IMG/VR virus record: IMGVR_UViG_3300009182_004229
Location: 1 to 60,769 of that record
Direction: 5' to 3' (one strand)
DNA length: 60,769 nucleotides
Source: a virus
Lineage: Duplodnaviria > Caudoviricetes
The position numbers and the translations under genes were made by a program. Position 1 is the stretch's first letter. Every line of letters starts with the position of its first letter. Below, piece after piece: positions 4,069-57,654 of the stretch. The notes below the pieces were generated by a model that saw only the letters and a program-made list of their open reading frames with translations, was not told where the DNA came from and did no database searches.

Positions 4069-4085
4069 TATTTATGGGCTAAATA
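4069..4085. promoter_or_regulatory. Back-to-back divergent TAAATA late-promoter-like boxes
   Basis: TATTTA at 4069-4074 (minus) and TAAATA at 4080-4085 (plus) between divergent genes. Confidence 0.7.
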
Positions 4086-4110
4086 TCCAACATCAATCCT
4101 GCGAGTGCCC

Positions 4111-9405: not shown

Positions 9406-9472
9406 GGCAGGACTCCTTTCCATTACAGCAATACTAACACAGATCTGTGCTTTCACAAGCGAAAAGATCGGC

Positions 9473-9478
9473 TAAATA
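9473..9478 (+). promoter_or_regulatory. TAAATA late-promoter-like box
   Basis: 5 nt upstream of the SOD ATG. Confidence 0.65.
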
Positions 9479-9483
9479 AGCAC

Positions 9484-10026
9484 ATGAAACTCCAAGATCT
9501 CGCCGAATCCAAGCAAAAAGAACAGCTAGAGCTGATAAAATTGCCCTATGCCATGAGCGCACTTGAACCCATCATGGAGCGCAAGGTGGTGGAATTCCAC
9601 TACAGCGTGCTCAGCAAGGGCTATGTGGATCGCTACAACCGGGGCGAGGGCGATCCAGGATTCAACAGGGCAGGAGCGCTGCTGCACAACCTCTGGTGGC
9701 CACAGCTGATGGCACCCAAGCTCAACAACAGGCCTCGAGGCGCTGTCGCTGATCTCATGGAAAAGACACAGGGGGGCTGGGATGAGTTCAAGGAAACGTT
9801 TACCAAAACCGCGCTTGACCTTCAGGGCAGCGGTTGGTGCTACATGGCCAAGAATGGTGAGATCAAGACGCTGAAGAACCAAAGCTGGCGATCAGACGTG
9901 GTCATGCCCATTGACCTCTGGGAGCACAGCTACACTCCATTCACGCTGCGCAAGGACTATCTCAAGACCATATGGCGCATCATTGACTGGAACGTGATCA
10001 ATCATCGCCTGTCTGCCAGCACGTAG
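9484..10026 (+). CDS. Fe/Mn superoxide dismutase family protein
   Basis: LPYAMSALEP, EFHY, LHNLWW, QGSGW and DLWEHSY; all four metal ligands appear to be kept. Confidence 0.88.
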   Translation: MKLQDLAESKQKEQLELIKLPYAMSALEPIMERKVVEFHYSVLSKGYVDRYNRGEGDPGFNRAGALLHNLWWPQLMAPKLNNRPRGAVADLMEKTQGGWDEFKETFTKTALDLQGSGWCYMAKNGEIKTLKNQSWRSDVVMPIDLWEHSYTPFTLRKDYLKTIWRIIDWNVINHRLSAST

Positions 10027-13977: not shown

Positions 13978-14030
13978 TAGATCAGCCCAACTTTATATGC
14001 TATAATAAATCACGACCTTGGAAACGATCA

Positions 14031-35811: not shown

Positions 35812-35813
35812 GC

Positions 35814-36323
35814 ATGGATCTCAGGGAAGCAGTCAAAGACATACATCACGCTGCGGAGCGTACCAAATGGTCACAGATGATGATCAGCGGCGACATGCGC
35901 TTGGAACAGTACGCAGCCATGCTTTATAACATGCACCCTATCTACACCGAGTTAGAGTGCACAGGTCTGATCACCAAACCCCAGGTGCTGCGTGCTGACA
36001 GGGTACAGGCTGATCTGGATTCTGTTGGTGGCACCAACCATGGTCTCTGTCTCAGCACGGTATACTACGTGAGGCACTTGGAAACGCTAGACGACCGTGA
36101 TCGCTGGGCACACATCTATGTGCACTATCTAGGCAACATGTACGGTGGGCAGATGATCGGCCGCCGCTTGCCGGGTCAGCACAGCCACTTGCTGTTCGAA
36201 GATCTGGATGGCTGCATTGCCTATGTGCGCAGCAACCTACAGGACGTTCGCACAGACACAGCCGTGAGCGCGTTTGAATGGACCATCAAGGTGTATGATG
36301 AACTGCATAACCTATTTGGATGA
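35814..36323 (+). CDS. hemO: Heme oxygenase (HemO-like)
   Basis: LREAVKDIHHAAE (proximal His) and AHIYVHYLGNMYGGQMI; AGGAGG RBS. Confidence 0.88.
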   Translation: MDLREAVKDIHHAAERTKWSQMMISGDMRLEQYAAMLYNMHPIYTELECTGLITKPQVLRADRVQADLDSVGGTNHGLCLSTVYYVRHLETLDDRDRWAHIYVHYLGNMYGGQMIGRRLPGQHSHLLFEDLDGCIAYVRSNLQDVRTDTAVSAFEWTIKVYDELHNLFG

Positions 36324-39830: not shown

Positions 39831-40973
39831 ATGAGCGATACACCATTCTGCCTACTGCCCTGGTTCCACCAGAAGGTAAACACAGACGGCAGCGTCAAGC
39901 CCTGCTGCGCGTGGTCCAGCACTGGCGAGATGCAGCCCGACAGGCGCTATACCCACGAGGACTTCTTCCATGGTGAGTTCATGCAGGAGCTGAGGCAGCG
40001 CTTCAGGGAAGGTAGCGTGCCCAGCAACTGCTCCAAGTGCGTTTACCTGGACAAGATAGGCTACAGGAACGGTCAGCGGGACTGGGGCATGGCAACAGCG
40101 GATGAGCTGGGCGTGGACACCCAGGATCCACAGCTGATGAGCCAGGAGGTTGACATCAGCAATCTCTGCAATCTCAAATGCCGCATGTGCTCCCAGACCC
40201 GCAGCACCAAGTGGATCCCCGACAGCGTGGCCCTGGGCAAGAAGCCAGCAGGGCTCATAGAAAGCAACTGGGCGCTGACCGATGAGCAGGCCAGCCGCAC
40301 CAAGCTGTTGGTGTTCCTGGGTGGCGAACCCACGCTGCATCAGGACAGGATCGCTGCGGCGCTGGAACAGATCGACAGGGTTGGTCGTCTTGACCAGCTC
40401 ACGCTGCGCTTCATCAGCAACCTCACCGTGCCATTGGAATGGCGCATGATAGAGCTCATGCGCAGGACCAAGAGCAACCGCATACTCTGCAGCATCGACG
40501 GCTATGGCGAGCTCAATAACTACATCAGATCTGACAGCCAGTGGTCTGAGATCGAGCGCAACGTGGAGCAGCTGGTGGACCTCAGCCGCGTGCAACCCAA
40601 CTTCAGCGTGGGTCAGAGCTTCACGCTCAGCGTGTACAACGCCGCTGGCTTCCACGAGTTCGCCCAGTGGTGGAGCAGATATGACCTCACCATCGCACCC
40701 ACGCTGGTGCTGGGACTGCTTGATGCTCGCAACCTACCTCGCGATGAAAGGCAAAGGCTCAGGACACACTATCAGCAGATCCTGGACGATCCCTGCACGG
40801 TGAGATACAAGAACGTGTACAGGATGATCATCGAGCATCTGAGCCAGGATTCCACCATGGACCAAGAGCAGTGGCGCCGGGAGATGCGCGACTACAACAG
40901 CCTGTTGGACCAACGCAGGCACACCAGCTTGGCTACTGTGTATCCTCAGCTGGCCGAGATCCTGGATCGCTAG
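39831..40973 (+). CDS. Twitch-domain radical SAM protein
   Basis: FCLLPW..PCC..CSKC; CNLKCRMC; LGGEP. Confidence 0.88.
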   Translation: MSDTPFCLLPWFHQKVNTDGSVKPCCAWSSTGEMQPDRRYTHEDFFHGEFMQELRQRFREGSVPSNCSKCVYLDKIGYRNGQRDWGMATADELGVDTQDPQLMSQEVDISNLCNLKCRMCSQTRSTKWIPDSVALGKKPAGLIESNWALTDEQASRTKLLVFLGGEPTLHQDRIAAALEQIDRVGRLDQLTLRFISNLTVPLEWRMIELMRRTKSNRILCSIDGYGELNNYIRSDSQWSEIERNVEQLVDLSRVQPNFSVGQSFTLSVYNAAGFHEFAQWWSRYDLTIAPTLVLGLLDARNLPRDERQRLRTHYQQILDDPCTVRYKNVYRMIIEHLSQDSTMDQEQWRREMRDYNSLLDQRRHTSLATVYPQLAEILDR

Positions 40974-43578: not shown

Positions 43579-46488
43579 ATGAAGATCAACGACGTACTAC
43601 CTTCCAAGATCCACGAGCAATGGACAAGCCAGATAGACGTGCCCAGTCTCTGGGACACCATAAGACGTAATCCAGGCAAGCGCGACGACCTAGACCAGTT
43701 CAGGCTGCTGGGTCACTTGGACAAGACCTATGATCAGCTGGGACAGGTGCAGAAAGACCTGTTTAAGATGATGCTGGCCAAGCACCTTTGGCGCATCATG
43801 AAGAGCGGCGGCCTGCCAAACAAGCTCACAGATATACACAGGGAAGTGGAAGCACTGAATCGCCGCATAGGCGTCAGCGAGGGCATCAGCAGAGAAGATC
43901 TCAGCGACGCCATCACACAGAGGATGATGAGCTCTGGACTGGCCAACAAGCTGCTGCGTGCGCATGGCCTGGACAGGGTCATCGACGCCATCAGCAGCGT
44001 GACTGAACAGCACCAAGGTGCTGAAGAACTGGGCAGCAGCGACATCAGCATCATGATCAAGCAGGTGCAGGATGAGCTGAACAGCGTCAGCGAGAACACA
44101 GGCAATCCCGCGCAGGCACCTCAGGTGGGCAATCCCGCACAGGCAGGCAACACGGTCAAGGCAGGTCAGACAGCGACCACTGTGGGCAAGCCCAGCAACA
44201 CAGCCAAGGCAGCAGACAGTAACACACAGCGCATAGCAGCAAACGCTACCGGACAGACAGCCGCAGCACAGCAGGCATTGGCAGCTGCCAAGGAAACGGT
44301 ACCAGTGCTGCCCAGCGATCGTACCAAGGCACAGCAGGCTAAGCTGGACAAGGCCAAGGCTGGTGTGGCAGGTCTGCCCATGGACAACGTTCTGGACGAG
44401 AGCTGGAAGACCGATCTCGCTGCCATGGCAGCAGCTGCTGGCATCATGGCAGGCGGCATGCAGATGGTGGCACCCGCAGGCAAGGACACCAGGATCATCA
44501 ACGGCATGGAAGCCACGCATTACACAGCCACTGCCGGCGACATCACGCCAAACAGGGCCACCATGACCAAGATCGACGGCAAGCCTGCCTGGGTATGGTG
44601 GGGCAAGGGCCGCCACGGCATGCAGGAGCTGTACTGGAACTATGCCGATGATCCACAGATGCGCCAAGCAGCTATGCGCGACGTCACAGCAGCATCAGTG
44701 CCACTCCCTCCCCGACGTCCCAGCGTGCCATTACCACCAAGGCGCGACACAGCTCAAAAGGCACAGGGCAGCATACCTCTGCCTCCGCAACGTCCTAGCG
44801 TGCCGTTACCACCAAGGCGCGACACAGAATACAAGGCACATGCACAGGATCTTGCCGCGCGCCGCGCGGCTGTGAATGAATCACCTGGTATGGGTGATAG
44901 GATCGTGTTTGAACTGGCAGATGGTCGAGCATTTGAAGCATCTGTGGCAGAAGTCAGAGGCAACAGCGTGGTGGTTGATCTGGATGAAACAGCACATCAA
45001 TGGTTAGAGGAATCACCAGATCACAGCCATCTCAAGATCCAGGGTGCCAGCATGATCAGCCCAGTGGCCAAGGCATGGAATGACATGATAGATGATCTAG
45101 ACAGTGACACTCCGCAGGGCTGGGCACAGCTGTTCCGTGCTAAGCAACAGGGCACAGAAGCCGCACGCAAGTGGGGCAGGCTGTGGAGGCAGCAGCACAC
45201 CGCACTGGGAGACACAGTTAGCCACGACGAGCAGCGGGACTGGGAACAGAAAGTGTCTGACTATCTCTCAGAAGACATCAACGAAGATATCAGCGAGCAG
45301 GAGCACATGATACGCAAGACTCTGAACAGCAAGGATCGTGTGCTGACCAAGATCTACATGGATGCTCGCCGCAACGGCGTGCCACTCAGGCAGTATGCAC
45401 AGGACTTGGCAGTGAAAGCTGGCATGCCCAGGGATCACTACTGGCAAAAGATCAAGCCTCTGGTCAACGAGCAGCTGCTCAGCGAATCAGACGCTCACGC
45501 CATGCTATGGCCTATCATCACCAAGGTGCTGGGACGCAAGCTCTACACTGGCAAGAACGCAGCTGATGTGTATGCATCGCACACTGACGATGGCTTGGAG
45601 CTGCACGGTGCGGTCACTCGCGGCCTGCATGGCAACGAAGAGCTAGAGCTAGAGCAGGCTTTCCACGATGCTGGCATACCCATAGAAAAGGTCAAGATAG
45701 AACCTGACATGATACGCATCAGCCTGCGTGGCGAGATCCACGAAAACACTGCTGATCCCTATTCGCGACAGACCAAGTACTACATCGTGCGCAAGAACGC
45801 TGGGCTCAACACCATACCCGGCAAGGCAGGCAGCCACACCATGGCAGCAGCACGCAAGCAGCTGGACAAGATGCCAGATGCTGAACACTACGAGATACGT
45901 GCGATAAACACTACCAAGATACCGCAGCAATCGCAGGTGGACGAAGGTCTCATGGACACTCTGAAGATCCTGGCTCTGCTGGGGCTGGGCGCCTATGGCA
46001 TCAATGCTACCCTGGACTCCATGAACGCACCCAGCAAGACGCCTTTGGGCCGTGCGCTGGCAGCAGCAGCACAGCAGGGGGACAAGAGCGCAGCCAAGTA
46101 CTTGGCCAACCTCGACACTTACATAGAAGCCAACGATGGCAACACCCTGGCCATGCTCAAGGACACCTACCTGGACGGCCCAAAGAGCGGCGTCAAGGAA
46201 GCCAAGTACCATGGGCGCGAGGTCAAGCTAGGCAAACCCATACGCACCAACACCGGCAGCGGCGGCAAGTTCAAGGTCTATGTCAGGGATCCCAAGACTG
46301 GCAACATCAAGATGGTGAGATTCGGTGACACCACAGGGCTCAGCATCAAGAGAGATGATCCCAAGCGCCGCAAGAGCTTCCGAGCTCGCCACCACTGCGA
46401 CAGCCCCGGTCCAAGGACCAAAGCTCGTTACTGGAGCTGCAGGATGTGGACTCGCAAACCTGTGGGCAAGATACTCAAGGGCAAATAA
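43579..46488 (+). CDS. Large modular late protein (putative head polyprotein)
   Basis: 969 aa; MKINDV start; segments bounded by IHE, VSE, LDE, VNE, LSE, VDE and VKE; basic C-terminal module ..KSFRARHHC..ARYWSC. Confidence 0.75.
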   Translation: MKINDVLPSKIHEQWTSQIDVPSLWDTIRRNPGKRDDLDQFRLLGHLDKTYDQLGQVQKDLFKMMLAKHLWRIMKSGGLPNKLTDIHREVEALNRRIGVSEGISREDLSDAITQRMMSSGLANKLLRAHGLDRVIDAISSVTEQHQGAEELGSSDISIMIKQVQDELNSVSENTGNPAQAPQVGNPAQAGNTVKAGQTATTVGKPSNTAKAADSNTQRIAANATGQTAAAQQALAAAKETVPVLPSDRTKAQQAKLDKAKAGVAGLPMDNVLDESWKTDLAAMAAAAGIMAGGMQMVAPAGKDTRIINGMEATHYTATAGDITPNRATMTKIDGKPAWVWWGKGRHGMQELYWNYADDPQMRQAAMRDVTAASVPLPPRRPSVPLPPRRDTAQKAQGSIPLPPQRPSVPLPPRRDTEYKAHAQDLAARRAAVNESPGMGDRIVFELADGRAFEASVAEVRGNSVVVDLDETAHQWLEESPDHSHLKIQGASMISPVAKAWNDMIDDLDSDTPQGWAQLFRAKQQGTEAARKWGRLWRQQHTALGDTVSHDEQRDWEQKVSDYLSEDINEDISEQEHMIRKTLNSKDRVLTKIYMDARRNGVPLRQYAQDLAVKAGMPRDHYWQKIKPLVNEQLLSESDAHAMLWPIITKVLGRKLYTGKNAADVYASHTDDGLELHGAVTRGLHGNEELELEQAFHDAGIPIEKVKIEPDMIRISLRGEIHENTADPYSRQTKYYIVRKNAGLNTIPGKAGSHTMAAARKQLDKMPDAEHYEIRAINTTKIPQQSQVDEGLMDTLKILALLGLGAYGINATLDSMNAPSKTPLGRALAAAAQQGDKSAAKYLANLDTYIEANDGNTLAMLKDTYLDGPKSGVKEAKYHGREVKLGKPIRTNTGSGGKFKVYVRDPKTGNIKMVRFGDTTGLSIKRDDPKRRKSFRARHHCDSPGPRTKARYWSCRMWTRKPVGKILKGK
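44695..44827 (+). repeat. In-frame tandem duplication encoding four S[VI]PLPP[RQ]R units
   Basis: agcgtgccRttaccaccaaggcgcgacacag at 44722 and 44797 (75 nt period). Confidence 0.85.
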
Positions 46489-46492
46489 GCCA

Positions 46493-46498
46493 TAAATA
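46493..46498 (+). promoter_or_regulatory. TAAATA late-promoter-like box
   Basis: Intergenic, upstream of 46516. Confidence 0.65.
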
Positions 46499-46515
46499 CC
46501 TGTGGGGAACTGCTG

Positions 46516-46953
46516 ATGCGAATCCATGATCTATACGGCGACCTGTTTGAAAGCGCACCCAGCGTTAGCAAGGTAGTGGCCGGATTGCCTCCCAGCTTCC
46601 AACACAGCATGCCTGCCACACATTCATTCCCAGACATAGATAACTACTACGGTTTTTACAGATTCGTCATAGCCATGGCCGGCGAACCAGATGATTCTAA
46701 TATACCGCTGCAGAGCAACATGCGCGACATACCACTGGCTGTGGCCTATACCAAACAAGAACATGATATGATACATAAGACGGCTAGGCGCATGGGATCA
46801 AAAGCCATAGAGCTAGCTTATCAAGGTAGCCACGAGCTGCCAGATACCTATACTAAAAGTCCTGTGATGAAGTTCAAGATGGATGAAAATCAACAGCACA
46901 AGCTAGCAGGTCTCATCAAGCTCAGCGAGGCCATGACGCATGAAGCTGAGTGA
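46516..46953 (+). CDS. Hypothetical protein, single copy of the module repeated in the next gene
   Basis: MRIHDL start; YYGFYRF..SHELPD..SPVMKFKM. Confidence 0.7.
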   Translation: MRIHDLYGDLFESAPSVSKVVAGLPPSFQHSMPATHSFPDIDNYYGFYRFVIAMAGEPDDSNIPLQSNMRDIPLAVAYTKQEHDMIHKTARRMGSKAIELAYQGSHELPDTYTKSPVMKFKMDENQQHKLAGLIKLSEAMTHEAE

Positions 46954-49363
46954 TCTCTTCGAAGGTTTTCCCACCGGCAAGATCCGCCGCAGCGTCAAGG
47001 ACACGCTGCCCATGATAGGGGTGATACCAGAGATCGACAACGGCAACCTCTACCTAAACTACAGATTTGGCACCACGCTGGCTTCAGCACTGGCTGTGGC
47101 CAATGGCGAGCATCCCTACAACAAGCAGATACCTTGGCACACCATGCAGACCGTGGCACCTTACACTCAGCAGGAGCTGGACATAGTCAAGCTGGCCTGC
47201 GCTCAGAGTGGTTTCACGCTGGACATGCTGCATGACGATGCCAGCCACGAACCAGACTGGGTCAATACCAAGAGCCCAGTGGCGCATCTGCCCATGCTGG
47301 AGAGCCGCAGGCTGTTGGAAGCATTTGGCAAGCAGAAGCTGAGCACTGACATACAGGACACGCTACCACCCGTGATAGTGATACCTGAGCTGAACAGCGG
47401 CAACAACTATCCGCAGTATCGTTTCATGACCGTGATGGCCAGCATCAGAGCCATCAAGGACGGTGACGTGCCCTATCGCAAGCTGCAGCCATGGAGCAAC
47501 AGCCTAGCCGTGGTTGGTTACACTCCCGAGGACATCGAAACCATACGCATGGCAGCTGCTGAGGCAGGTTTTGCCATAGATGAGATCAACAGCAGCATCA
47601 GCCACGAACCAGACTGGGTCAACACTGTTAGCCCAGTGATGAAGTTCAAGATGCTGGAAGCCGCAGGCGACGGCATGCTACATGTGCCCAAGAGCCCACT
47701 GATACACAATCTCAGCAGCGCCGATGATGATGCGCAGAGCTATCAAGACACGCCCACCAGAGGCAAGCCGCAGATCTTGGTGGTGTACCCAGGTCGTTTC
47801 CAGCCTCTGCATCGAGGCCACAAGGCAGTGTATGACGATCTGGTCAAGCAGTTTGGTCCCAACGTGTACATAGCCACCAGCAACAAGACCGACCCCGACA
47901 AGAGCCCGTTTGATTTCGCTGACAAGCAGAGCATGGCCCGTGCAGCAGGCGTACCCAGCGACAAGGTGGTGCAGGTCAAGAACCCTTACAACCCCGCGGA
48001 GATCACTGGCCTTTTTGAGCCCAGCAACACAGTGCTGCTCATGGCTGTGGGTGCCAAGGACATGGACACAGACCCTAGGTTCAAGCTGCCTGACCAGGGC
48101 CTGGCCAAGAAGAAGGACGGCAGCCCTGCTTATCTGCAGAAGTGGCCAGAGCTGCACAGGGCCAAGACCATGGACCAGCATGGCTACATCGTGGCTGCGC
48201 CAACCAAGGAATTTGAAGTGCTGGGTGAACCAGCCACCAGCGCCACTGAGATACGTGCGCAGTATCGTGACTCAGATCCCAGCCAGCGTGACCAGATCAT
48301 CACAGATCTCTATGGCAAAACCAACAAAGACCTACGACGCCTGTTCGATGCCAAGCTAGCGGCAATGAGCGAGGACCAAAAGGCCTATCTGCAGAACCCT
48401 TTGGATCCGGAAGGTGACACCAACGGACCAGGCAAGACTGGTGATCAGTGGGTAGAGTCCAGTTCCCATGCAAGAAACACACCAAAACTCACAAAAATCT
48501 CCAAGCATATCAGCGAGAAAGCAGGGACTAAATCAGCCAAACGCACCAACGAAGCTGCTAGCAGGATCAACGACGATTGGTTCCGCAACGGGTCGTTCAA
48601 GACTTGGAAGAATCCCACACCTGTGAAGTATGAGATCGCAGACACAGCTGGCACCGTGGACACGCTGGAAGGTCCCATGCGTCACGATGCTGGTCACTAC
48701 ATCATGACTGGTCCCAAGGGTGAGCGCTATCCCATCACTGCTGACAAGTTCAAGACATTGTATGACGACAATGGCAACGGCACTGCCACTCCCAAGCGCG
48801 TGGAAAAACTGGCCAAGGTGGCTGACCACGACGGTGTGCTGCACACCAGCTGGGGCGATCTGGCCTATACCACTGGCAACGACTACATAGTGCGACACGG
48901 CCCCGGTGACTACGGTGCTGTTAAAGCAGACATCTTTGCCAAGACCTATCACATGCCAACGCAGCTGTCAGAATCAGCCGGCGTCAGTGAGAACGATTTG
49001 TTAGATGCCATGCGCAAGTTTTTGATCATTGCCAAGGAAGAGATCGGTCTTGAGGCTTTGCCCAAGATCAATTGGAGCTGGGATGACAAGGTCGCTCCAG
49101 ACAGCCCCAGCTTTGGCCGCTTTACCAACACAGACAAGAGCATCAAGATCATCATGCGCAATCGCCATCCCATAGACATCATGCGCACGCTAGCACACGA
49201 ACTGGTGCATTACAAGCAGGATGTTGAACACAGGATCGGCCCGGACAGCGGTGAGACTGGCAGCCCCATTGAAAATGAAGCCAACGCTCTGGCTGGTCAG
49301 ATCATGAGGCGCTTTGACCATGAGAATCCCCAACTGTTTGCTCTTTCTGCTGTTACACCTTAA
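46940..49363 (+). CDS. Modular protein: two repeat modules, HIGH-type nucleotidyltransferase, PGDYG domain, HEXXH domain
   Basis: YPGRFQPLHRGH..SATEIR; TLEG..GPGDYGAVKADIFAKTY; RTLAHELVHYKQ..ENEAN. Confidence 0.8.
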   Translation: MKLSDLFEGFPTGKIRRSVKDTLPMIGVIPEIDNGNLYLNYRFGTTLASALAVANGEHPYNKQIPWHTMQTVAPYTQQELDIVKLACAQSGFTLDMLHDDASHEPDWVNTKSPVAHLPMLESRRLLEAFGKQKLSTDIQDTLPPVIVIPELNSGNNYPQYRFMTVMASIRAIKDGDVPYRKLQPWSNSLAVVGYTPEDIETIRMAAAEAGFAIDEINSSISHEPDWVNTVSPVMKFKMLEAAGDGMLHVPKSPLIHNLSSADDDAQSYQDTPTRGKPQILVVYPGRFQPLHRGHKAVYDDLVKQFGPNVYIATSNKTDPDKSPFDFADKQSMARAAGVPSDKVVQVKNPYNPAEITGLFEPSNTVLLMAVGAKDMDTDPRFKLPDQGLAKKKDGSPAYLQKWPELHRAKTMDQHGYIVAAPTKEFEVLGEPATSATEIRAQYRDSDPSQRDQIITDLYGKTNKDLRRLFDAKLAAMSEDQKAYLQNPLDPEGDTNGPGKTGDQWVESSSHARNTPKLTKISKHISEKAGTKSAKRTNEAASRINDDWFRNGSFKTWKNPTPVKYEIADTAGTVDTLEGPMRHDAGHYIMTGPKGERYPITADKFKTLYDDNGNGTATPKRVEKLAKVADHDGVLHTSWGDLAYTTGNDYIVRHGPGDYGAVKADIFAKTYHMPTQLSESAGVSENDLLDAMRKFLIIAKEEIGLEALPKINWSWDDKVAPDSPSFGRFTNTDKSIKIIMRNRHPIDIMRTLAHELVHYKQDVEHRIGPDSGETGSPIENEANALAGQIMRRFDHENPQLFALSAVTP

Positions 49364-49389
49364 GCTGTCATAGAGCCTATCTGAGAGAT

Positions 49390-49575
49390 GTGGATATGTT
49401 GTTTCTACTACTGTTCCTGCTGATCATAGCTGTAATCTGTCGGCAATCGGTGCTGGTAGAGACTCTGGCAGCAGTGACTCTGCTGCTGTTCATAATACCA
49501 ATGCTGTTGGTATTCCTGCCATTCTGGGTGCTGTTCCTGTTCATCATACTGGGCAGCAGCGTGGGGTTAGATTGA
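49390..49575 (+). CDS. Small hydrophobic membrane protein
   Basis: Almost wholly hydrophobic 61 aa ORF filling the gap; start uncertain. Confidence 0.45.
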   Translation: MDMLFLLLFLLIIAVICRQSVLVETLAAVTLLLFIIPMLLVFLPFWVLFLFIILGSSVGLD

Positions 49576-50405
49576 AGATCGTCTATGCCTGCGGCGACAG
49601 CCACACAGCAGGAGGCGAGACTGCCGACCATCTGCTGTGGCCCGATCAGCATCCTGGATTCTACGGCTTAGATGACCTAGCGCTCAGAGACCCGAGGCAG
49701 CTGCAGAGATGGCGAGAATTCAGGGAACGCAGGCTGCGTGCAGCTGATCCAGTAAACAATGATGCTTGGCAGGTAGCTGAGAATGCTCATGCCTGGCCCA
49801 CCAAGCTTGGGCGCGAGCTCAGCGACAGCCAAGTGATCAATGCTGCTGTGATAGGTCAGAGCATGGACTGGGTAGCCAGGCAGACTATCACCGACATTGG
49901 CGATCTCATAGACAAACACGCTGCTCGCGACATCACAGCTGTGATACAGCCACCCACTCACGTGCGCATGCAGACCTATGATTCAGCCAACGCCCGATGG
50001 CGCAGCTTCCAGCTGGGCATAGTCGGTGACATGGATCCGCATGTGCATGGCTGGTTCGTGGCCAACGAGGACGAGTGCAGCCTGCTGACCAGATGGATGC
50101 TGAACCTCATAGGGCTCTGTGGTACCATGGACTATCTGCATGTGAGGATCATACTGATCAGCGCAGGCATGCCAGACATGGCAGATGTGCTGGAACAACA
50201 CAGGGTAGCATCGGCTCTGCGCGGCGACACCAGCTCAGCTGGTGTGAGACGCATCTATGACAGCCTTTGTGGCCACAGATGGCATCCGCGCAGCATGAGG
50301 GACATGGCCAAGCTGGTCAACAAGCCGCACTGTCCCGATCTGCACTGGCGCAGCGAAGTTCACACTGTGCTGGCACAGGATCTAGCCGATAGCTACGACC
50401 TGTAA
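49572..50405 (+). CDS. SGNH/GDSL-like protein
   Basis: YACGDSHTAG, INAAVIGQS and C-terminal HW..H; resembles 23411..24223. Confidence 0.65.
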   Translation: MKIVYACGDSHTAGGETADHLLWPDQHPGFYGLDDLALRDPRQLQRWREFRERRLRAADPVNNDAWQVAENAHAWPTKLGRELSDSQVINAAVIGQSMDWVARQTITDIGDLIDKHAARDITAVIQPPTHVRMQTYDSANARWRSFQLGIVGDMDPHVHGWFVANEDECSLLTRWMLNLIGLCGTMDYLHVRIILISAGMPDMADVLEQHRVASALRGDTSSAGVRRIYDSLCGHRWHPRSMRDMAKLVNKPHCPDLHWRSEVHTVLAQDLADSYDL

Positions 50406-51512
50406 GGGTGGGAATCCATTGAAAGCTATGGTGCTGTAGGTGCTGGTATAAGCACCACAGGTCCATATGATCACTCTGTCACCAGACGTGAGGCTCACAG
50501 GGAAGTCTACCTTGTTGCGCTCGTAGAGCACGTCAGCGCTGTCACAGGTTGGACCTGCCACGATGCAGGGCGAGGTTGGCTCTGACTCCTTGTCTAGCAC
50601 CGTGAACTGATACTTGATGCTCTCACCTTCTGCTTCTGCCAGACCGCTGAAGCGACCCACGTTGAGATAGACCCAGCGCACGGGATCACCCGGGGTCTTG
50701 CGGCTGACCAACACGCATTCTGCTGCGATAGCACCAGCCGAACCTGTCATGCCTCGGCCTGGCTCAGCCATGATGTATTCCACGCCTTCAAAACGCCGTT
50801 CAACTTCTGCCATGAGGGTGGCACCATAGGTCTGGCTGTCCGTGATGTCCACGCCGTAGTAGGCTGGGAACCCTCCGCCGATGTTCAACAACCACAACCT
50901 GTGACCCTCTGCTCGGGCGTCATGCCATATGGCTGACACGGTGTCCAAGCAGTCATACCACATGTAGGGATGCTTGGTCTGGCTGCCCACGTGGAAGCTG
51001 AGACCCACTGGTGCCAAACCCAGTGTCCTGGCCAGATCCAACAGCGGGATGGCATAGCTGGTGCTGCAGCCAAACTTGCGGCTCAGTGGCCATTCGGCTT
51101 CGGCGCTGCTGACCAACAGGCGTATGAACACTTCACAGCCCGGCGCATGCTCAGCCAGCTTGTGCAGCTCTTCCTCGGAGTCTGCGCTGAACAGAGTGAT
51201 GCCCTGCGCATGTGCCCAGGCTATGTCCTGTGATCGCTTGATGGTGTTGCCATAGCTGATGTGCCCAGGCTTGGCTCCTGCAGCAAAGCACATTTCGATC
51301 TCTTGAGTGCTAGCAGCATCAAATCTGCAGCCCAGCTTGACCAAGCGAGCCAGTATGGCAGGATGAGGATTGGCTTTCACAGCATAGTGTATGTGTGCTG
51401 TGGGCATACCTGACTTGAGCTCTGCATAGTTTGATTCGACCTTGTCGATGTCTAGGACCAGCGTGGGCACGTCAAAGGTATTGGAGCGGATGTAGTCTTC
51501 TAGCTTGTTCAT
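50382..51512 (-). CDS. Ornithine/lysine decarboxylase (fold type III PLP)
   Basis: HYAVKANP, FHVGSQ, NIGGG, EPGR, GPTCDS, GAY; start at 51512 or 51524. Confidence 0.93.
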   Translation of the reverse strand: MNKLEDYIRSNTFDVPTLVLDIDKVESNYAELKSGMPTAHIHYAVKANPHPAILARLVKLGCRFDAASTQEIEMCFAAGAKPGHISYGNTIKRSQDIAWAHAQGITLFSADSEEELHKLAEHAPGCEVFIRLLVSSAEAEWPLSRKFGCSTSYAIPLLDLARTLGLAPVGLSFHVGSQTKHPYMWYDCLDTVSAIWHDARAEGHRLWLLNIGGGFPAYYGVDITDSQTYGATLMAEVERRFEGVEYIMAEPGRGMTGSAGAIAAECVLVSRKTPGDPVRWVYLNVGRFSGLAEAEGESIKYQFTVLDKESEPTSPCIVAGPTCDSADVLYERNKVDFPVSLTSGDRVIIWTCGAYTSTYSTIAFNGFPPLQVVAIG

Positions 51513-51514
51513 GT

Positions 51515-51546
51515 CAACCCCCATAAATTCACGTGCATGGGGGTTG
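51515..51546 (-). promoter_or_regulatory. Perfect 10-bp hairpin covering the decarboxylase initiation region
   Basis: CAACCCCCAT-N12-ATGGGGGTTG, ending 2 nt before ATG at 51512. Confidence 0.6.
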
Positions 51547-51613
51547 TGGCCCTTGCGCTCGGAGGTTTTATTTATATTATAGATCTAGGAGAAAAGCAAC
51601 CGTAAAATGCGGT

Positions 51614-52270
51614 ATGAACATAGCATTCATAGGTGATAGTTTCTGTGCCAGCAAGAACTCCAAGGCATGGACCGAGCTGGTAGCCGCGCAGCTGGGAGCT
51701 ACAGTGTTGTGCCAAGGTCAGGGAGGCGTCAGCATATGGCACAGCTACCAACAGCTGCTGGCACACATGGACCACCTGCAGCTGGCTGTGCTCTGCTACA
51801 CTGATGAGTATAGGCTACCAAATCCCAGTGGCTATCCCATCAACCTGGGCAGCGTCAAGTACCATATCAGCGGCCAGCAGGACCAGTATTATCAGACCAG
51901 CTTTCCCCACAAGCAGGTCTGGGAAGCTGCTGCTGCCTACTACGATCATCTCTTGGTACCAGAGTATCATCAGCTGACACACAGGCTGATCATACAGCAC
52001 ATGGACGGCCTGCTGGCAGCACGACGTATAAGAGCCGTGCACTTCTTCAGCTTTGAGCATCAGCCGCTGAGCTTTGCCAGCGGTCCCTGCTGCGATCAAG
52101 GTCTCTGGGAATGGCTGCAGAGCTGTGGCAAGACCAGCATCGCGCACGACAGCGACGAGAACCACATGAGCTGGCCACAGAACCAACACGTGGCCGACGT
52201 GGTTAGCAGGCTGCTGGCCAGTGATAGCAGGGAGAGTTTTGCGCTGGACCGCGTGCGCTATCACCGATAA
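51614..52270 (+). CDS. SGNH/GDSL-like protein
   Basis: AFIGDSFCA, GQGGVS and C-terminal NHMS; TAGATC-17-TAAAAT just upstream. Confidence 0.65.
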   Translation: MNIAFIGDSFCASKNSKAWTELVAAQLGATVLCQGQGGVSIWHSYQQLLAHMDHLQLAVLCYTDEYRLPNPSGYPINLGSVKYHISGQQDQYYQTSFPHKQVWEAAAAYYDHLLVPEYHQLTHRLIIQHMDGLLAARRIRAVHFFSFEHQPLSFASGPCCDQGLWEWLQSCGKTSIAHDSDENHMSWPQNQHVADVVSRLLASDSRESFALDRVRYHR

Positions 52271-52273
52271 ATA
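52268..52273 (+). promoter_or_regulatory. TAAATA(TC) late-promoter-like box
   Basis: 5 nt before ATG at 52279. Confidence 0.65.
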
Positions 52274-52278
52274 TCGCC

Positions 52279-55200
52279 ATGCGCATAGATGATGTAAACA
52301 CTGAAGCCATACAGCTCACACCTCGCAGCGAGAAAGCTCGAGCGTGGATAGACAGAGTATATGCGCTGTATCCGCAGACTTGGCAGCACAACCACGTGAT
52401 GGTGCTGGGTGGTGAGGGTGATGATCAGCAGTTTGCCATGTTTGAGCTGGAGCCCAGCCTGAGCAAGCGCGATGCCGTGGAAGTCAAGTGGTTCCAAGCC
52501 TATCCTCTGCGACAGGGTGTTGGCAGCCGCGCCATGCGCACCCTGCAGGATCTAGCACAGCAAGATGGCATCACACTCACGCTCTATCCCTGGAACAAGG
52601 GACAGGTCAGCCAAGGCAATCTGGTCAAGTTCTATCGCAGGTCAGGGTTCCGACCCACTGCCAAGGGTGCCAAGACCATGGCCTGGGAGCCCAGCGTGAT
52701 GGAAGCCAAGCTAACCAACCGAGATCCCGTGGAGCGTTGGATCGCAGTGTTCAAGGCCAGCACACATCCCAAGTTCAAGGGCAAGAGCTCAGCAGAACGC
52801 GAGAAGATGGCACGCATGGCACAGTATCGCGCCGTGCAGAACAAGAAGACATTTGAAAACATGGACCACAGCAAGGACTCACAGGCAGTGCCAGAGCTCA
52901 AGGCAGCACTGCTGAGCCGCAAGCGACTGATCAAGAGCAAGTCCGGCGACAAGGATGCTGTGTATGACATCATCAACGGGCTCATGACCAGCATAGCCAA
53001 GGCACACGGCATCAGCGGACAGAAGCTGCATGACATGTGGGTTGACCAATATGATGAGATACCAGACACTTGGATACTGCATGAACACCGCGGTGTGCCA
53101 GCGGAAGCAATGCTAGCCAAGCAGCACGGCGTGGGAGTGGCCAAGATCAAGCAGCTGCTGGCCCAGGGCATCAAACATGAGCTGGCTCAGGCCACGGATC
53201 GCGCGGCGGCCCGAGAGATGGCTCTTGAAAAGCTGCAGCATGATCTGGGCCACTACGACCTCCTGGAAGAAGCAGCCAACATGACCACTGCTGCGCTGAG
53301 AAACCGGCTCAACAAGCTGATGGCGGAAGATCAGGCCTACGCTGATGCCACACAGCGAGCACCGTGGCAAGAAGGCGTGTGGCGCTTCATCACTGCCAAC
53401 AAGGCACAGATATTCTCAGATCTCGGTGACAGTGGCAACGGTGACTATCCCAGCGCACCGTTCGCTGCTTGGTTGCTGGTACAGCACATGGATGCGCATC
53501 CTGAACGCCAGGCAGCTTTCTACAAGCTGCTGAAGAGTGCCATACCAAACCATCCCAAGCTGCAGTTCCTGCGTGACAGAGCAGCTGTGAACCAATGGAT
53601 CATGCAGCACTATCAAGAGCCCCAATTCCACAGGGACGGCAAGCCCTTGGCCAATCCGACCTCAGACGTGCGTGATCACAGATTATTCAAGGATGCTGGC
53701 ATCAAGGCTGCTAGCAGGCAAGAGGCGCTAGACAATGCTGTGGCAGCTGGCAACAAGCTGTTGGTGGCAGCAGTAGAAGCCACAGGTGCCAAGACGCAGC
53801 CCAGCTACACTCAACAGACCAAGGAAAGCATGGAAGAAGCTGCGATCGATACCACGGAATACGGTGGTTGGATCACACCTGACAAGCAGATAGAATACGT
53901 GGACACGCATGACCACGCCGCTCACGTGGCACGCCATCACAACTTGGACTATAACGAAGCCTTCCTCGATGGCTTCCTGAGATTCGCTAACCACAGCCGC
54001 ACCAACACATTCTCGGTGGAAGGCATGCTGCCTGTGTTGCGCAAGACCTACCGCATGTGGGCTCCCACTGCGCTGGCAGCTGACAGGGTCTACGTGGACA
54101 TCTACAAGTGGCAGGACCACATGGCGAACCAAGGATTGACACCGCACATGATGTTCAGGCCCCAGGATGGCGACAAGCCACAGATCATCAACAGCTTTGG
54201 ACCTCAATCAGCCCAGTTGTCAGAAGGTACCAAGCGCAAGGCCAAGACTCTGATAGATGGCATGATCAAGAGCCTGATCAAGCAGGGCCGCACTCGCGAT
54301 GAAGCCATAAGCGATCTCAAGAAGCAGGTTGACAGCAGATTCTACGAGGCAATTGATCTGCTGGCCAACGGTGACATACTTGAAGAGAATCTCAGAGATT
54401 GGTTCAAGCAGAAGTGGGTGCGCTTTGGACCAGACGGCAAGATCAAAGGAGACTGTGCTCGCGGCAGCAGCAAAGAAGGCAAGCCCAAGTGCCTGCCACA
54501 GGCCAAGGCACATGCCCTGGGCAAGAAGAAGCGTGCTACCGCAGCACGCCGCAAGCGCAGGGAAGATCCCAACGCCAATCGCAAGGGCAAGGCTAAGAAC
54601 GTGAGGACCAAGGAAAGCATCGCAGAAAACTCAGCACTGAGGTCAGCCACCATGCGAGTGCAGCGCATGCTCAACGACAGATTTGGCGCCAACTTGGACA
54701 TAGATGGCATCCTTGGTCCTCTCACGCTGGCCAGCATCAACCAGTTCATGCCCGCAGCGGGCTTTGGTCCCGCTGACGATCCCAGCCGCACCACTGCGGT
54801 GCAGGGCGGGGAACTCAAGACCGAAAGCTGCCCACACTGCGGCGGTGTGATGTATGAAGCCAGCCAGATGATGGAAAAGAAAGACGCCTGCTACTACAAG
54901 GTCAAGAGCAGGTACAAGGTATGGCCCAGCGCCTATGCCAGCGGTGCGCTGGTGCAGTGCCGCAAGAAGGGTGCCAAGAACTGGGGCAAGCACAAGGCCG
55001 AGGAAGCACTGCGCGAGGATGAAGACTACCACAGCGAGATCAAGATGAACCAGCTGATTGACAACGTGACGCACATGCTGGATCACGGTCAGGCCTATGA
55101 TGCCCTAGAGACCATGGAGAGCTGGGACGCTACGGTTGACAGCGATCCGCGCCTCAGCGCACTCTGGGATCAAAACATGGATCAACTGGCCAACATGTTC

Positions 55201-57654
55201 ATCCAGGAGCTCAAGGATGGCAGCGGTGATCCCCATGCGCTGGGACAGATAGCTGAGATGATCGCACGCATCGGCATACCCATGCCCAATCACAAGATAT
55301 CTGCTATCCTAGACAGCAAGAGCCTGTTGATCAACAGGCTGGTCAGCAAGGACCTTCGGTATTCGTCTCTGCTGCAGGTGGTGCAGTCACTGGGGGCCAT
55401 GGAACATTGGGGACTGCACTATTATCTGGAAGATTTCGTTGACGTGGAAGATGACAAGGCAGAAGTGATACGCAGCCTGCTCAAGCTCTACAAGAGTGGG
55501 CGGGGCAGCGACGTGTCAGAGATAATCGATAGGCTGCGGCGCGAGGGCCACGAATGGCCAGAGTTTGCCAGCTTTGACAAGAGCATGGGTGCTGGCAAGC
55601 TCACCGAGACTCGTGATGCTGCTTTGAAATGGCTCAAGAGCTATCTGCCTGCATGGCCCGATTATGTGGTGCGTGATTGGATGTACAATCATTTCAGAGG
55701 CGAGTGGGCTGCCAGCGGCGATGATCCCAAGACTGTGATACAACGCACCCTGGATGGTGAGGGCATGACTCCACAGACGCGTTGGAAGTTCGTGCCAGAT
55801 TTCCATTTCACGTTTGATAGCCTGGATCCAGACACGGTGCGCCGCATCAAGGAGAGACAAGGCGGCACTGTAAATCCCTATGGTATTCCCAAGGATGCTG
55901 AACGCCATGCCACTCAAGCCACGCTGGCAGCACAGCAAGGCGGTGTCAGGGATGAACCCGTGATACTCAAGAAGGTAGGCGATCAGTATGAGCTGATAGA
56001 AGGCTGGCACAGGACCATACAGCACTTCAAGCAGTTCCCAGATGGTTACAAGGGTCCTGCGTGGATCGCGCTGGATGCCAAACCAGTCAATGAAGAAGAA
56101 CAAGACAAGCAAATCACATGGACCAAACCAAACCTTGATTTTGAGTGGGAAGAGATACCGTTCCAATCCAAGGCTGCCGGCGTGCCTAACGAAGTACGGC
56201 AGTATCTACAGCAGCATTTCCCTGACAAGGCTACTTGGCTACGCACAGCACAACAGGGAAGGGTGGTCACGATTCCCGCAGATCACTCACTTGACATAGA
56301 GAACTCTCCACATGATGAAGCATCATTGATGCATGCTCTGAGATCAGACCAAGACCCAGGCGGACCTGGCAAGGCGGCCAGAGCTGAACAAGCCTTCCGT
56401 GAACGATCCGTGGAGATGCCAATCATCCTCAACACAGGCGATAGGCTGTGGTTGATCGGTGGCAAGACACGCTTGGGATATGCCAATTACATCCTCAAGA
56501 TTCCAGCCAAGGTATGGATGATAGGTGACAACCTCAGCGAAAACTTCGCAGATGGCAAAGGCAAGATAACTCTCTACACAGATCCAAATTACTATGGTGC
56601 CGAGGTAGACGATTCAGCGGGCAAAGGCAAGCCGGTTATACAGGTACCATTGTCAAAACTCGTGGGATTTGAACCAGACGAGAAGATGAAAAGCGCCAAG
56701 AGCAGTGCTAACATGGAAAAAATGGTCAAGCTGATCAAGTCAGGCAAAGGCAGCGACCTGCCTCCAATATTGGTCAGGCGATATGAGGGCGGTTATCAAG
56801 TGCTTGACGGGCATCACAGATATCACGCTTACACCGCAGCCGGTGCCAAGACTATCCCTGCCAAGCTGATACCAGCTGATGAGATCAAGATCATAGACAA
56901 AGCTACAATCAACGAAAACTTCGCAGACGGCAAGGGTCCGGGTCGCAAGGGTGACAGTGGTCGTCACGGTATTCCAAAGCATGCTACCATAGCACAGCTG
57001 GAAAAAGCCGCAAAGGCATCAGGTCGCAAAGGCCAGCTAGCACGCTGGCAGTTAAACATGCGCCGTGGTCGTGCCAAGGCACACGAGTCTGAAGAACCAA
57101 TGACTGCTGATCAATGGCAGGCTCTGCGCAAGGAAGATCCTCGCAGCTATCTGGGTATCAAGGACTATCGCAATCGCAAGTGGTGGGAGAGCCATTTCAA
57201 GGCAGCCATGGCACAGGCCAGGGTCAAGGGAGAACCACGCTTTGAGTTCCCTCCTGGCACCAACATGTGGTACATGGTCACCAAGAACCCGCTGGAAGAA
57301 GGCAGTCCCCCGCATGGCACGCCTGAGAACGAGCTGGCCATGATGAAGGCACGCACCAAGCCTGCTGTGACCTTCCTCGACATGGGCCAGTACGAAGAGA
57401 TGTACGAACCCAACATGGAACTCTATGGTTGGATCAAGCAGAAATGGCGCTTGCCCAACATGGATGTCGGCTACTATGTGATAGGACAGCCTGGGCAGGA
57501 AGCCAGAGTCAAGCGCATAGGCCAGCTGATCTATGACATGAACAAGAATGGCCAGAACCCCACCGCAGACTATCACCGAGAGCTGGGACGACTGCTGGGC
57601 TACAGCGAAGCAGACATCAACGGTTTCCTCAAGGATCTCGAGCAGCAGAATTGA
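52279..57654 (+). CDS. 1791-aa modular late protein (putative head polyprotein) with GNAT-like, peptidoglycan-binding-like and ParB/Srx-like modules
   Basis: RQGVGS..LVKFYRRSGF; LDIDGILGPLT; LIEGWHR, LIGGKTR, VLDGHHR; junctions VME, LHE, LEE, LSE, LTE, VNE, INE. Confidence 0.8.
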   Translation: MRIDDVNTEAIQLTPRSEKARAWIDRVYALYPQTWQHNHVMVLGGEGDDQQFAMFELEPSLSKRDAVEVKWFQAYPLRQGVGSRAMRTLQDLAQQDGITLTLYPWNKGQVSQGNLVKFYRRSGFRPTAKGAKTMAWEPSVMEAKLTNRDPVERWIAVFKASTHPKFKGKSSAEREKMARMAQYRAVQNKKTFENMDHSKDSQAVPELKAALLSRKRLIKSKSGDKDAVYDIINGLMTSIAKAHGISGQKLHDMWVDQYDEIPDTWILHEHRGVPAEAMLAKQHGVGVAKIKQLLAQGIKHELAQATDRAAAREMALEKLQHDLGHYDLLEEAANMTTAALRNRLNKLMAEDQAYADATQRAPWQEGVWRFITANKAQIFSDLGDSGNGDYPSAPFAAWLLVQHMDAHPERQAAFYKLLKSAIPNHPKLQFLRDRAAVNQWIMQHYQEPQFHRDGKPLANPTSDVRDHRLFKDAGIKAASRQEALDNAVAAGNKLLVAAVEATGAKTQPSYTQQTKESMEEAAIDTTEYGGWITPDKQIEYVDTHDHAAHVARHHNLDYNEAFLDGFLRFANHSRTNTFSVEGMLPVLRKTYRMWAPTALAADRVYVDIYKWQDHMANQGLTPHMMFRPQDGDKPQIINSFGPQSAQLSEGTKRKAKTLIDGMIKSLIKQGRTRDEAISDLKKQVDSRFYEAIDLLANGDILEENLRDWFKQKWVRFGPDGKIKGDCARGSSKEGKPKCLPQAKAHALGKKKRATAARRKRREDPNANRKGKAKNVRTKESIAENSALRSATMRVQRMLNDRFGANLDIDGILGPLTLASINQFMPAAGFGPADDPSRTTAVQGGELKTESCPHCGGVMYEASQMMEKKDACYYKVKSRYKVWPSAYASGALVQCRKKGAKNWGKHKAEEALREDEDYHSEIKMNQLIDNVTHMLDHGQAYDALETMESWDATVDSDPRLSALWDQNMDQLANMFIQELKDGSGDPHALGQIAEMIARIGIPMPNHKISAILDSKSLLINRLVSKDLRYSSLLQVVQSLGAMEHWGLHYYLEDFVDVEDDKAEVIRSLLKLYKSGRGSDVSEIIDRLRREGHEWPEFASFDKSMGAGKLTETRDAALKWLKSYLPAWPDYVVRDWMYNHFRGEWAASGDDPKTVIQRTLDGEGMTPQTRWKFVPDFHFTFDSLDPDTVRRIKERQGGTVNPYGIPKDAERHATQATLAAQQGGVRDEPVILKKVGDQYELIEGWHRTIQHFKQFPDGYKGPAWIALDAKPVNEEEQDKQITWTKPNLDFEWEEIPFQSKAAGVPNEVRQYLQQHFPDKATWLRTAQQGRVVTIPADHSLDIENSPHDEASLMHALRSDQDPGGPGKAARAEQAFRERSVEMPIILNTGDRLWLIGGKTRLGYANYILKIPAKVWMIGDNLSENFADGKGKITLYTDPNYYGAEVDDSAGKGKPVIQVPLSKLVGFEPDEKMKSAKSSANMEKMVKLIKSGKGSDLPPILVRRYEGGYQVLDGHHRYHAYTAAGAKTIPAKLIPADEIKIIDKATINENFADGKGPGRKGDSGRHGIPKHATIAQLEKAAKASGRKGQLARWQLNMRRGRAKAHESEEPMTADQWQALRKEDPRSYLGIKDYRNRKWWESHFKAAMAQARVKGEPRFEFPPGTNMWYMVTKNPLEEGSPPHGTPENELAMMKARTKPAVTFLDMGQYEEMYEPNMELYGWIKQKWRLPNMDVGYYVIGQPGQEARVKRIGQLIYDMNKNGQNPTADYHRELGRLLGYSEADINGFLKDLEQQN

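Follow-up and report, generated by a model that had tools for sequence, protein, structure and literature searches.

The prohead protease of phage T4, gp21, prefers Leu or Ile at position P3 of its substrates. According to one report, gp21 cleaves after glutamyl residues, and "LIE-9 conforms with its cleavage logo" (PMC9026906). The same text describes how the first ten residues of the T4 internal protein IPIII suffice for incorporation into the head. Of these, residues 4 and 7 matter for targeting, residues 8 and 10 serve processing, and the latter is blocked when residue 10 is an Asp. Such a capsid-targeting sequence (CTS) may be a general route by which T4-like phages load varied proteins (PMC9026906). 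Each of these ingredients has been published: the CTS, gp21-type cleavage, polyvalent proteins, and, in the head proteins of giant phages, multiple cuts. Here, we analyze a sequence of 60,769 bases, the entire IMG/VR virus record IMGVR_UViG_3300009182_004229 (hereafter, the window), and in particular its genes starting at positions 43579, 46516, 46940, and 52279. A preliminary description of this DNA had proposed that these genes share an N-terminal tag, and that three of them encode packaged polyproteins whose unrelated modules are joined at hydrophobic-x-Glu (h-x-E) sites. Three of the four tagged genes indeed encode mosaics of short modules: P0001 (gene 43579) has at least 8, P0002 (gene 46940) at least 6, and P0003 (gene 52279) at least 15. 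We favor the reading that these are late polyproteins that are targeted to the prohead and cut into modules by a gp21-type protease. Cleavage, its enzyme, packaging, ejection, and effector roles are all inferred; for this reason, and because the protease is absent from the fragment, we put the probability of this reading at about 0.6.

Module borders coincide with hydrophobic-x-Glu sites

Module borders in the three proteins coincide near-exactly with h-x-E sites. We compared the window proteins with their homologs in the related loci L008, L009, L010, and L012-L014, and the main difference was that whole modules were present, absent, or replaced. Junctions were taken from gap blocks of at least 15 residues, flanked on each side by ten aligned residues at 50% identity or more. 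This test yielded 37 indel or replacement blocks and 78 junctions, or 59 junctions after near-identical positions had been merged. Fifty-five of the 59 lay within two residues of [LIVMFTA]-x-E/ (here and below, a slash follows the Glu), compared with a mean of 7.5 for random positions in the same proteins (standard deviation 2.5, maximum 18, 2000 permutations). The 59 junctions are not independent and represent about 12 separate events, every one of which follows the h-x-E rule except for one end in L014. Among 43 unique junction contexts, 36 had one of six residues at P3 (V 13, L 6, T 5, I 4, A 4, and M 4), P2 was variable, and P1' was mostly S, N, or A. An aliphatic-type P3, a variable P2, and a Glu at P1 are the pattern expected of a protease site.

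All the h-x-E sites listed in the preliminary description are present in the sequence, and for 19 of 25 the relatives show an indel, a break in homology, or a gene boundary within ~3 residues. Border support was weak for VDE/GL (789) of P0001 and was not found in the relatives for LSE and INE (565-573) of P0001, MSE/DQ (478) of P0002, and MME/KK (866) of P0003. The leader site IHE at residue 13 of P0001 lay outside the reach of the indel test.

Leader Glu and internal junction Glu are equivalent

We also observed that the Glu that ends a leader and the Glu that ends an internal module are equivalent. The L009 homolog of P0001 is without the first module, so that its leader, MKIDDVLGADE/GISRDD, stands where the window has the internal junction IGVSE/GISRED. 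Likewise, the L009 homolog of P0002 retains only the second of two repeat copies and fuses it directly to the leader, MRLSDLFE/NF..., which aligns with the internal RRLLE/AF... of the window. More distant jumbo-phage contigs encode these modules in small genes of their own, directly behind a 9-10-residue leader, such as MRVTEIIAE/NFADG or MKSFTEYLAE/S. The former is a 63-residue gene in contig G004, and in the window its module comes after LSE/ and INE/. The NMDH module of P0003 is the last module of small leader-bearing proteins in L019-L022, where the stop codon falls exactly at the LHE/ of the window. The HExxH module of P0002 also exists as a single-module protein with a leader, both in L020 (MKVTEILTE/) and as gp332 of Synechococcus phage B23.

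The preliminary description had expected modules to occur in different orders in related phages but always to begin just after the Glu, and a conserved order would have spoken against it; the modules were found to combine differently, beginning just after the Glu. In L017, a 234-residue mini-polyprotein runs leader, basic module, NMDH, and NFADG, an order unlike that of the window, and unites modules that are 1,300 residues apart there. The C-terminal basic module of P0001 (phrog_7595) follows LDE/, ITE/, or MSE/ in other phage contigs, and the P0003 module at residues 1273-1421 is missing from L013. From these comparisons, the module set appears to evolve by gain, loss, and exchange of cassettes at junctions.

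The junctions might instead be scars of gene fusion or of short-sequence recombination, in proteins that act at full length, whether or not they are packaged. Junction sequences do recombine: a 28-nucleotide direct repeat (56534-56561 and 56909-56936, 89% identical) brackets the 375-nucleotide ParB-like cassette of P0003, which suggests gain or loss of the cassette through recombination across the junction codons. Interchangeable leader and junction Glu residues would be expected from the fusion of tagged genes as well. However, beyond three residues, the junctions share no sequence except in the ParB case, and the P1 Glu and aliphatic P3 are retained while P2 and the flanks vary, in contigs of 38-55% guanine-cytosine (GC) content. 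Retention of these two positions points to selection on the site itself, and we consider scars an unlikely explanation.

Leaders and late-promoter-like boxes

A six-frame scan of the whole window with M[KR][ILV]xD[VLI] returned five matches, every one at a gene start. Four are the M[KR][IL]xD[VL] starts of the genes at 43579, 46516, 46940, and 52279, which bears out the shared tag of the preliminary description. The fifth, outside the region covered there and absent from its list, belongs to an Fe/Mn superoxide dismutase (SOD) gene at 9484. This SOD carries an N-terminal extension of ~15 residues, beginning MKLQDLAE/, like the cargo leaders, and its homolog in contig G001 starts MKLTQLNETKE/KLTLEPLPY. 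The tagged SOD may be head-packaged and is a candidate for further cargo. The leaders MKINDVLPSKIHE/ (P0001), MRIHDLYGDLFE/ (145-residue protein), MKLSDLFE/, and MKLQDLAE/ end in h-x-E and agree with a leader of ~10 residues closing on [LI]-x-E, with hydrophobic or aromatic residues ahead of that motif; that of P0003, MRIDDVNTE/, has N at P3 and fits loosely. Tags were kept in the syntenic homologs of L008, L009, L010, L013, and L014. A looser leader pattern, which missed MKLSDLFE and MRIDDVNTE, matched 27 of 1238 first-ATG open reading frames (ORFs), many of them not genes, against 15 of 3298 later ATGs, a difference of roughly 5-fold.

The four genes had been described as lying behind TAAATA boxes. 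We found the box within 40 nucleotides upstream of three of them (43579, 46516, and 52279) and of the SOD gene at 9484, but not upstream of 46940 in the same 40-nucleotide check. The 46940 gene has no box of its own and overlaps the end of 46516-46953, and is probably co-transcribed with it. TAAATA occurs 18 times in the window against 3.74 expected (standard deviation 1.63; maximum of 100 shuffles, 8), a ~5-fold enrichment. Boxes also precede unrelated genes, for example at 39831 and 59121, so they mark a promoter class and not cargo as such. We take the T4 late consensus to be TATAAATA and liken the boxes to a T4-type late promoter; by their sequence, they appear late-promoter-like.

The preliminary description had likened the tag to the T4 capsid-targeting sequence, and the leaders of related contigs bring the two close together. 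T4 IPII and IPIII start MKTYQEFIAE/A (read from NC_000866), and the related contigs have, behind TAAATA boxes, MKTFKQYLAE/S (G007), MKSFTEYLME/S (G004), and MKSFTEYLAE/S (G006). Many others begin M[KR][VA]x[ED][IF][IL]xE/. G007, in which tblastn found matches to 15 window ORF queries (one a shadow frame opposite UvdE; UvdE itself is 66% identical), encodes a T4-type head module made up of a portal, an acidic protein starting MSNFEQLIE/, a 208-residue Peptidase_S77 protein (96.6 bits), a scaffold protein, and gp23. Its gp23 has four h-x-E sites within the first 60 residues, and gp23 is also present in G004. A gp21-like protease, which the preliminary description expected in the genome, was thus found in this related contig and in the genome LR756508, and not in the 60.8-kb window fragment.

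Modules of the three mosaic proteins

Most modules are 60-160 residues long, and most match nothing in Pfam. The features of the locus are collected in Table 1, and the module labels of the preliminary description fared as follows. The GNAT label of P0003 was upheld by sequence and fold: the best PDB match is 6IUF (sequence E 5.5e-5; fold E 3.4e-5, template modeling (TM) score 0.71 by target), which is AcrVA5, an anti-CRISPR GNAT acetyltransferase according to PMC11021501. AcrVA5 is 23% identical to the P0003 module, and the alignment covers the acetyl-CoA-binding core that GNATs have in common; nothing is inferred from it about target or anti-CRISPR activity. The ParB-like label is borderline (Pfam 25.7 bits against a cut-off of 26.3; PDB ParB E 2e-4). 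In P0002, Pfam recognized the nucleotidyltransferase, which by sequence is cytidylyltransferase-like, and also a PGDYG module, while the HExxH peptidase label has the motif and weak matches. An Atlas search with the P0002 repeat module gave no usable match, and phmmer against PDB gave none for P0001 or P0002.

Mapping module borders by AlphaFold, as the preliminary description had suggested, worked in part. In the GNAT model (predicted local distance difference test (pLDDT) 79.3), neither residues 1-14, which contain the leader, nor the last 4 residues are structured. The model of whole P0002, from a 12-row alignment, was too poor for linker mapping (mean pLDDT 44.5), and its Foldseek matches all had E > 0.001.

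The basic Cys-containing modules of P0003 are widespread in Kyanoviridae. In Synechococcus phage S-RIM2, a 355-residue basic protein that shares them is flanked by the small terminase subunit on one side and a virion protein on the other. Two Kyanoviridae records label a homolog of these modules "structural protein" with the evidence unstated, and we did not count this as proof of packaging.

Table 1. Tagged genes, upstream boxes, and modules in the window (aa, amino acids; a slash follows the Glu of a junction)
Feature	Coordinates	Strand	Basis or remark
Fe/Mn superoxide dismutase, leader MKLQDLAE/	9484..10026	+	Pfam, start-pattern scan, TAAATA at 9473-9478
TAAATA box upstream of P0001	43541..43546	+	also upstream of L008, L009 homologs
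P0001, 969-aa mosaic protein, start MKINDV	43579..46488	+	six-frame scan (start); leader, at least 8 modules, basic C-terminal module
P0001 leader MKINDVLPSKIHE/, 13 aa	43579..43617	+	start-pattern scan, homologs
P0001 window-only module, aa 275-434, VLDE/ to AVNE/	44401..44880	+	missing from L008, L009 homologs
P0001 C-terminal basic module, aa 875-969, phrog_7595, after GVKE/	46201..46485	+	comparison with phage contigs
TAAATA box upstream of 145-aa gene	46493..46498	+	box scan
145-aa protein, start MRIHDL	46516..46953	+	six-frame scan (start), comparison; leader MRIHDLYGDLFE/ and single copy of the module doubled in P0002
P0002, 807-aa mosaic protein, start MKLSDL, overlaps preceding gene	46940..49363	+	six-frame scan (start); order MKLSDLFE/, two repeat modules, nucleotidyltransferase, linker, PGDYG, zincin
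P0002 tandem pair of unassigned module, aa 9-121 and 128-240	46964..47659	+	L-x-E before each copy, MLE/ at the end of each copy
P0002 nucleotidyltransferase module	47660..48373	+	Pfam CTP_transf_like, aa 282-347; weak NadD/NadM fold matches
P0002 PGDYG module, aa 539-678, after RTNE/	48554..48973	+	Pfam; in L008, L010 the same point is the start of a separate gene
P0002 small HExxH (zincin-like) module, aa 685-807, after LSE/SAGVSE/	48992..49360	+	motif and weak matches
TAAATA box, 5 nucleotides upstream of P0003	52268..52273	+	box scan
P0003, 1791-aa mosaic protein, start MRIDDV	52279..57654	+	six-frame scan (start), comparison with relatives; leader and at least 15 modules
P0003 GNAT acetyltransferase module, aa 10-142	52306..52704	+	closest AcrVA5; leader and C-terminal VME/ junction outside fold
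P0003 NMDH...DTWILHE module, aa 194-269, TFE/ to LHE/	52858..53085	+	comparison
P0003 basic Cys-containing modules, aa 704 to ~913, phrog_727 and others	54388..55017	+	common to 355-aa basic Kyanoviridae protein
P0003 two modules, aa 1111-1272 and 1273-1421	55609..56541	+	nearest Atlas clusters small viral ParB/sulfiredoxin-like proteins, lead only
P0003 ParB-N-like module, aa 1422-1546, window-only	56542..56916	+	[LSE/INE]/NFADGKG on both flanks; Pfam, PDB
P0003 NFADG basic module, aa 1547-1603	56917..57087	+	in G004/L019 a 63-aa gene, MRVTEIIAE/NFADG...

P0002 ends in the HExxH module, with weak matches to Peptidase_M78 (Pfam, E 0.25) and, by Foldseek on a poor model, to minigluzincins, Wss1, and IrrE (E 0.03-0.2, TM by target 0.5-0.57). 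Such an ending would suit polyvalent proteins (Iyer et al. 2017), which would be delivered with the DNA and be either uncut or cut by an embedded zincin-like peptidase in place of a prohead protease; they too carry many disparate domains within one phage polypeptide, and the embedded MPTase is predicted to release domains (PMC5512222). Yet P0001 and P0003 are without a peptidase module, and relatives encode the zincin on its own, either as a small gene or as a leader-bearing protein. Furthermore, the P1 Glu, the aliphatic P3, and the leader agree with described T4 gp21 substrates, and no hallmark Pfam domain of polyvalent proteins (LPD, MuF, or MPTase-PolyVal) was matched at E up to 5. We regard this explanation as decidedly improbable.

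A protein related to P0002 is encoded at L003 5974-8721 (LR756508 135866-138613) in a 484-kb phage. It has 915 residues, starts MKLGSFSKKLTINLIEE/G, and joins a ParB-like N-terminus to the same nucleotidyltransferase module as P0002 in another module order. The LR756508 genome encodes gp21 and gp23. As a stand-in for the complete genome, LR756508 was dropped; only 3 of 94 window ORFs match it.

P0001 contains PAQ-rich and proline-rich low-complexity stretches and one hydrophobic stretch. Low-complexity sequence of this kind would fit prohead core or scaffold-like material that is chopped like T4 gp22, gp67, and gp68 and mostly expelled, and that would not be cargo acting on the host. The acidic protein of the G007 head module has a similar leader, and multiple cuts are described as clearing propeptides from heads (PMC10052503 and PMC9026906). 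Against scaffold-like material stand the recognizable enzyme or DNA-binding modules (GNAT, nucleotidyltransferase, ParB-like, and basic) and the distance of these genes from any head gene within the window; we think it very unlikely.

Weighing a proposed polyprotein cut in the prohead

Our reading of the locus is as follows. The genes at 43579, 46516, 46940, and 52279, and probably the SOD gene at 9484, would be late genes, whose products begin with a short capsid-targeting leader ending in h-x-E, like T4 internal proteins. The three large products would be polyproteins, chains of small autonomous modules bounded by h-x-E, and the leader would direct the precursor into the core of the prohead. 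A prohead protease of the gp21 family (Peptidase_S77) is predicted to cut there after each Glu, stripping the leader and releasing the modules. The freed modules would remain in the head with the DNA and would likely be ejected into the host. The preliminary interpretation as polyprotein cargo is supported in its computable parts, that is, in module shuffling, in the likeness of the tag, and in the gp21-family protease of a relative.

Several observations weigh against this reading. The number of [LIVM]xE motifs exceeds composition only weakly overall: significantly in P0001 (19 versus 9.8, z 3.5), marginally in P0002 (13 versus 8.6, z 1.8), and not significantly in P0003 (26 versus 22.5, z 0.8). 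Raw number alone would not carry the claim, and the predicted enrichment holds by site position. An earlier junction test, with no flank filter and one common shift for both ends, placed only 16 of 181 gap blocks at such sites (null mean 4.7, maximum 13); its blocks were mostly alignment noise in non-homologous stretches, and the filtered test was used instead. KPF/AAKP in L014 is one clear junction without a Glu, and in the S-RIM2 protein the Glu before each module comes, by eye, without a regular hydrophobic P3.

The association of modules with leaders is also imperfect. The nucleotidyltransferase module is N-terminal without any leader in L037 and at G007 174970. In L008 and L010, the PGDYG-zincin part is a separate gene that starts MT[YH]EPE... 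without the shared tag, so the tag is not universal. The basic modules occur in podovirus records as well (Pelagibacter and Prochlorococcus phages of 35-38 kb, where a gp21 homolog was not searched for), and the modules themselves are therefore not tied to the proposed mechanism.

Genomic context adds three further points. The neighbors of the tagged genes in the window are not virion genes. LR756508, the only complete genome to combine a P0002-like protein with gp21 and gp23, shares as few ORFs with the window as stated above. Finally, neither Peptidase_S77 (PF03420) nor gp23 (PF07068) was matched in the window, which holds no head gene, nor in contigs G001, G002, and G003 of its own lineage; since these are fragments, 4-17% complete, the lack of a match is not evidence of absence.

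The source fragment and its other genes

The window is a piece of a very large phage of the T4 superfamily. It has no end repeats, a GC content of ~55%, and a CheckV completeness of 6%. Contigs G001 (87 kb), G002 (37 kb), and G003 (19 kb) are syntenic and of the same lineage (completeness 17, 7, and 4%). G004-G007 form a looser set of jumbo-phage contigs (GC 38-42%, 14-52% complete) that have single modules and some genes in common with the window. Megablast of the tagged-gene region against phage records gave zero matches.

Gene products of the window include an RpoD-like sigma-70, a subtilase, the Fe/Mn SOD, a collagen-repeat protein, a GNAT, heme oxygenase, DNA ligase, UvdE, a DNA methylase, and a holin-like protein. 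The sigma factor (10724-12193, minus strand) is full length, with regions 1.2, 2, 3, and 4 and the non-essential region, and the G001 copy is 90% identical. The 702-residue subtilase (7348-9456, minus strand; Peptidase_S8, E 8e-45) adjoins the tagged SOD. It adds a second protease to the fragment, and its type is not Glu-specific. The collagen triple-helix repeat protein (4105-5064, plus strand) has a TAAATA box at 4080.

A long series of radical-SAM, UDP-glucose dehydrogenase, and carbamoyltransferase genes also runs through the window. At least seven radical-SAM-like genes (13974-21413, 28108-29520, and 39831-40973, plus strand) are grouped with UDP-glucose dehydrogenase (25023-26183), carbamoyltransferase (29505-30992), and methyltransferases, and this is a large modification or biosynthesis cluster in a phage. 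The heme oxygenase gene (35625-36323, plus strand; Pfam E 1.7e-11) is followed by a gene common to G005; together with the many module matches to Synechococcus and Prochlorococcus phages, these two genes hint at a cyanobacterial host.

Between the polyprotein genes lie genes, at 49572-50405 and 51533-52270 of the window (plus strand) and at 14344-15180, 16416-17075, and 17082-17744 of L008, whose products start ...YACGDSHTAGGE and ...IAFIGDSFC. Their copy number varies among relatives. They had no PHROG match, and their starts resemble the GDS motif of SGNH hydrolases.

Comparison with known systems

Among open-access papers and preprints, we found no description, for T4-like phages, of independent cargo modules strung together behind one CTS with head-protease-type sites between them, nor of the same modules occurring in some T4-like jumbo phages as tagged genes with a single module and in others within polyproteins. 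A tentative extension of our reading, to which we give less than even odds, is that jumbo phages of the T4 superfamily share a loading grammar: any module placed behind a leader and flanked by h-x-E would enter the prohead, be cut free, and be injected, so that each phage would have its own pre-made "ejectome". Cut sites would then double as recombination joints, and modules could consequently pass freely from single-module genes into polyproteins as long as 2000 residues and back. Here, the ejectome would comprise the AcrVA5-like acetyltransferase, ParB-like nucleases, the nucleotidyltransferase, a small metallopeptidase, basic DNA-binding modules, and SOD, and its members would act before any phage gene is transcribed. 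If our reading is true, leaders and h-x-E junctions would reveal, from sequence, which proteins uncultured jumbo phages package and inject, and would parse giant "hypothetical" proteins into functional units. It would also point to pre-loaded counter-defense enzymes, such as the AcrVA5-like acetyltransferase, that act ahead of transcription.

The closest described system is that of the T4 internal proteins IPI, IPII, and IPIII and of Alt, which, like the proteins here, have a short leader ending in h-x-E (MKTYQEFIAE/ in T4; MKSFTEYLAE/ and MRAHEFITE/ in related contigs) and a late-promoter-like box upstream. In both, diverse and fast-changing cargo sits behind a conserved leader (for T4, PMC3012670 and PMC9026906). 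Unlike in T4, a single leader here serves up to 15 or more modules, with internal sites between them, and the window leaders (M[KR][IL]xD[LV]..., 8-13 residues) are further from T4 than those of G004-G007. If our reading is true, the T4 capsid-targeting principle, in use for packaging foreign proteins, would extend to natural multi-cargo polyproteins.

In the phiKZ-like phages, many inner-body and ejection proteins are cut after Glu by a gp21-related protease (phiKZ gp175, SPN3US gp245), some propeptides several times (PMC10052503 and PMC9026906). At P3, the phiKZ-like motif calls for a small residue ([SAG]-x-E; A-x-E in SPN3US according to PMC10052503), whereas P3 here is mostly V, L, I, M, or T. 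Those cuts remove N-terminal propeptides; here, the sites separate a chain of independent modules.

Polyvalent proteins, as PMC5512222 portrays them, are very large phage proteins with 2-15 unrelated domains, including ParB-like and zincin-like ones; the prediction is that they accompany the DNA and are cut into units. P0002 (at least 6 modules) and P0003 (at least 15) fall within or reach this range of two to fifteen disparate domains. In Pfam, however, none of their hallmark domains was matched at E up to 5; the only matches were PGDYG, CTP_transf_like, and a borderline ParB_N. Most modules here are also much smaller than the domains of polyvalent proteins and are without a Pfam family. The enzyme predicted for polyvalent proteins is the embedded MPTase (PMC5512222), whereas the sites here are prohead-protease-like and two of the three proteins have no peptidase. 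Overall, if true, our reading would offer a concrete alternative to the embedded-peptidase model of polyvalent-protein processing.

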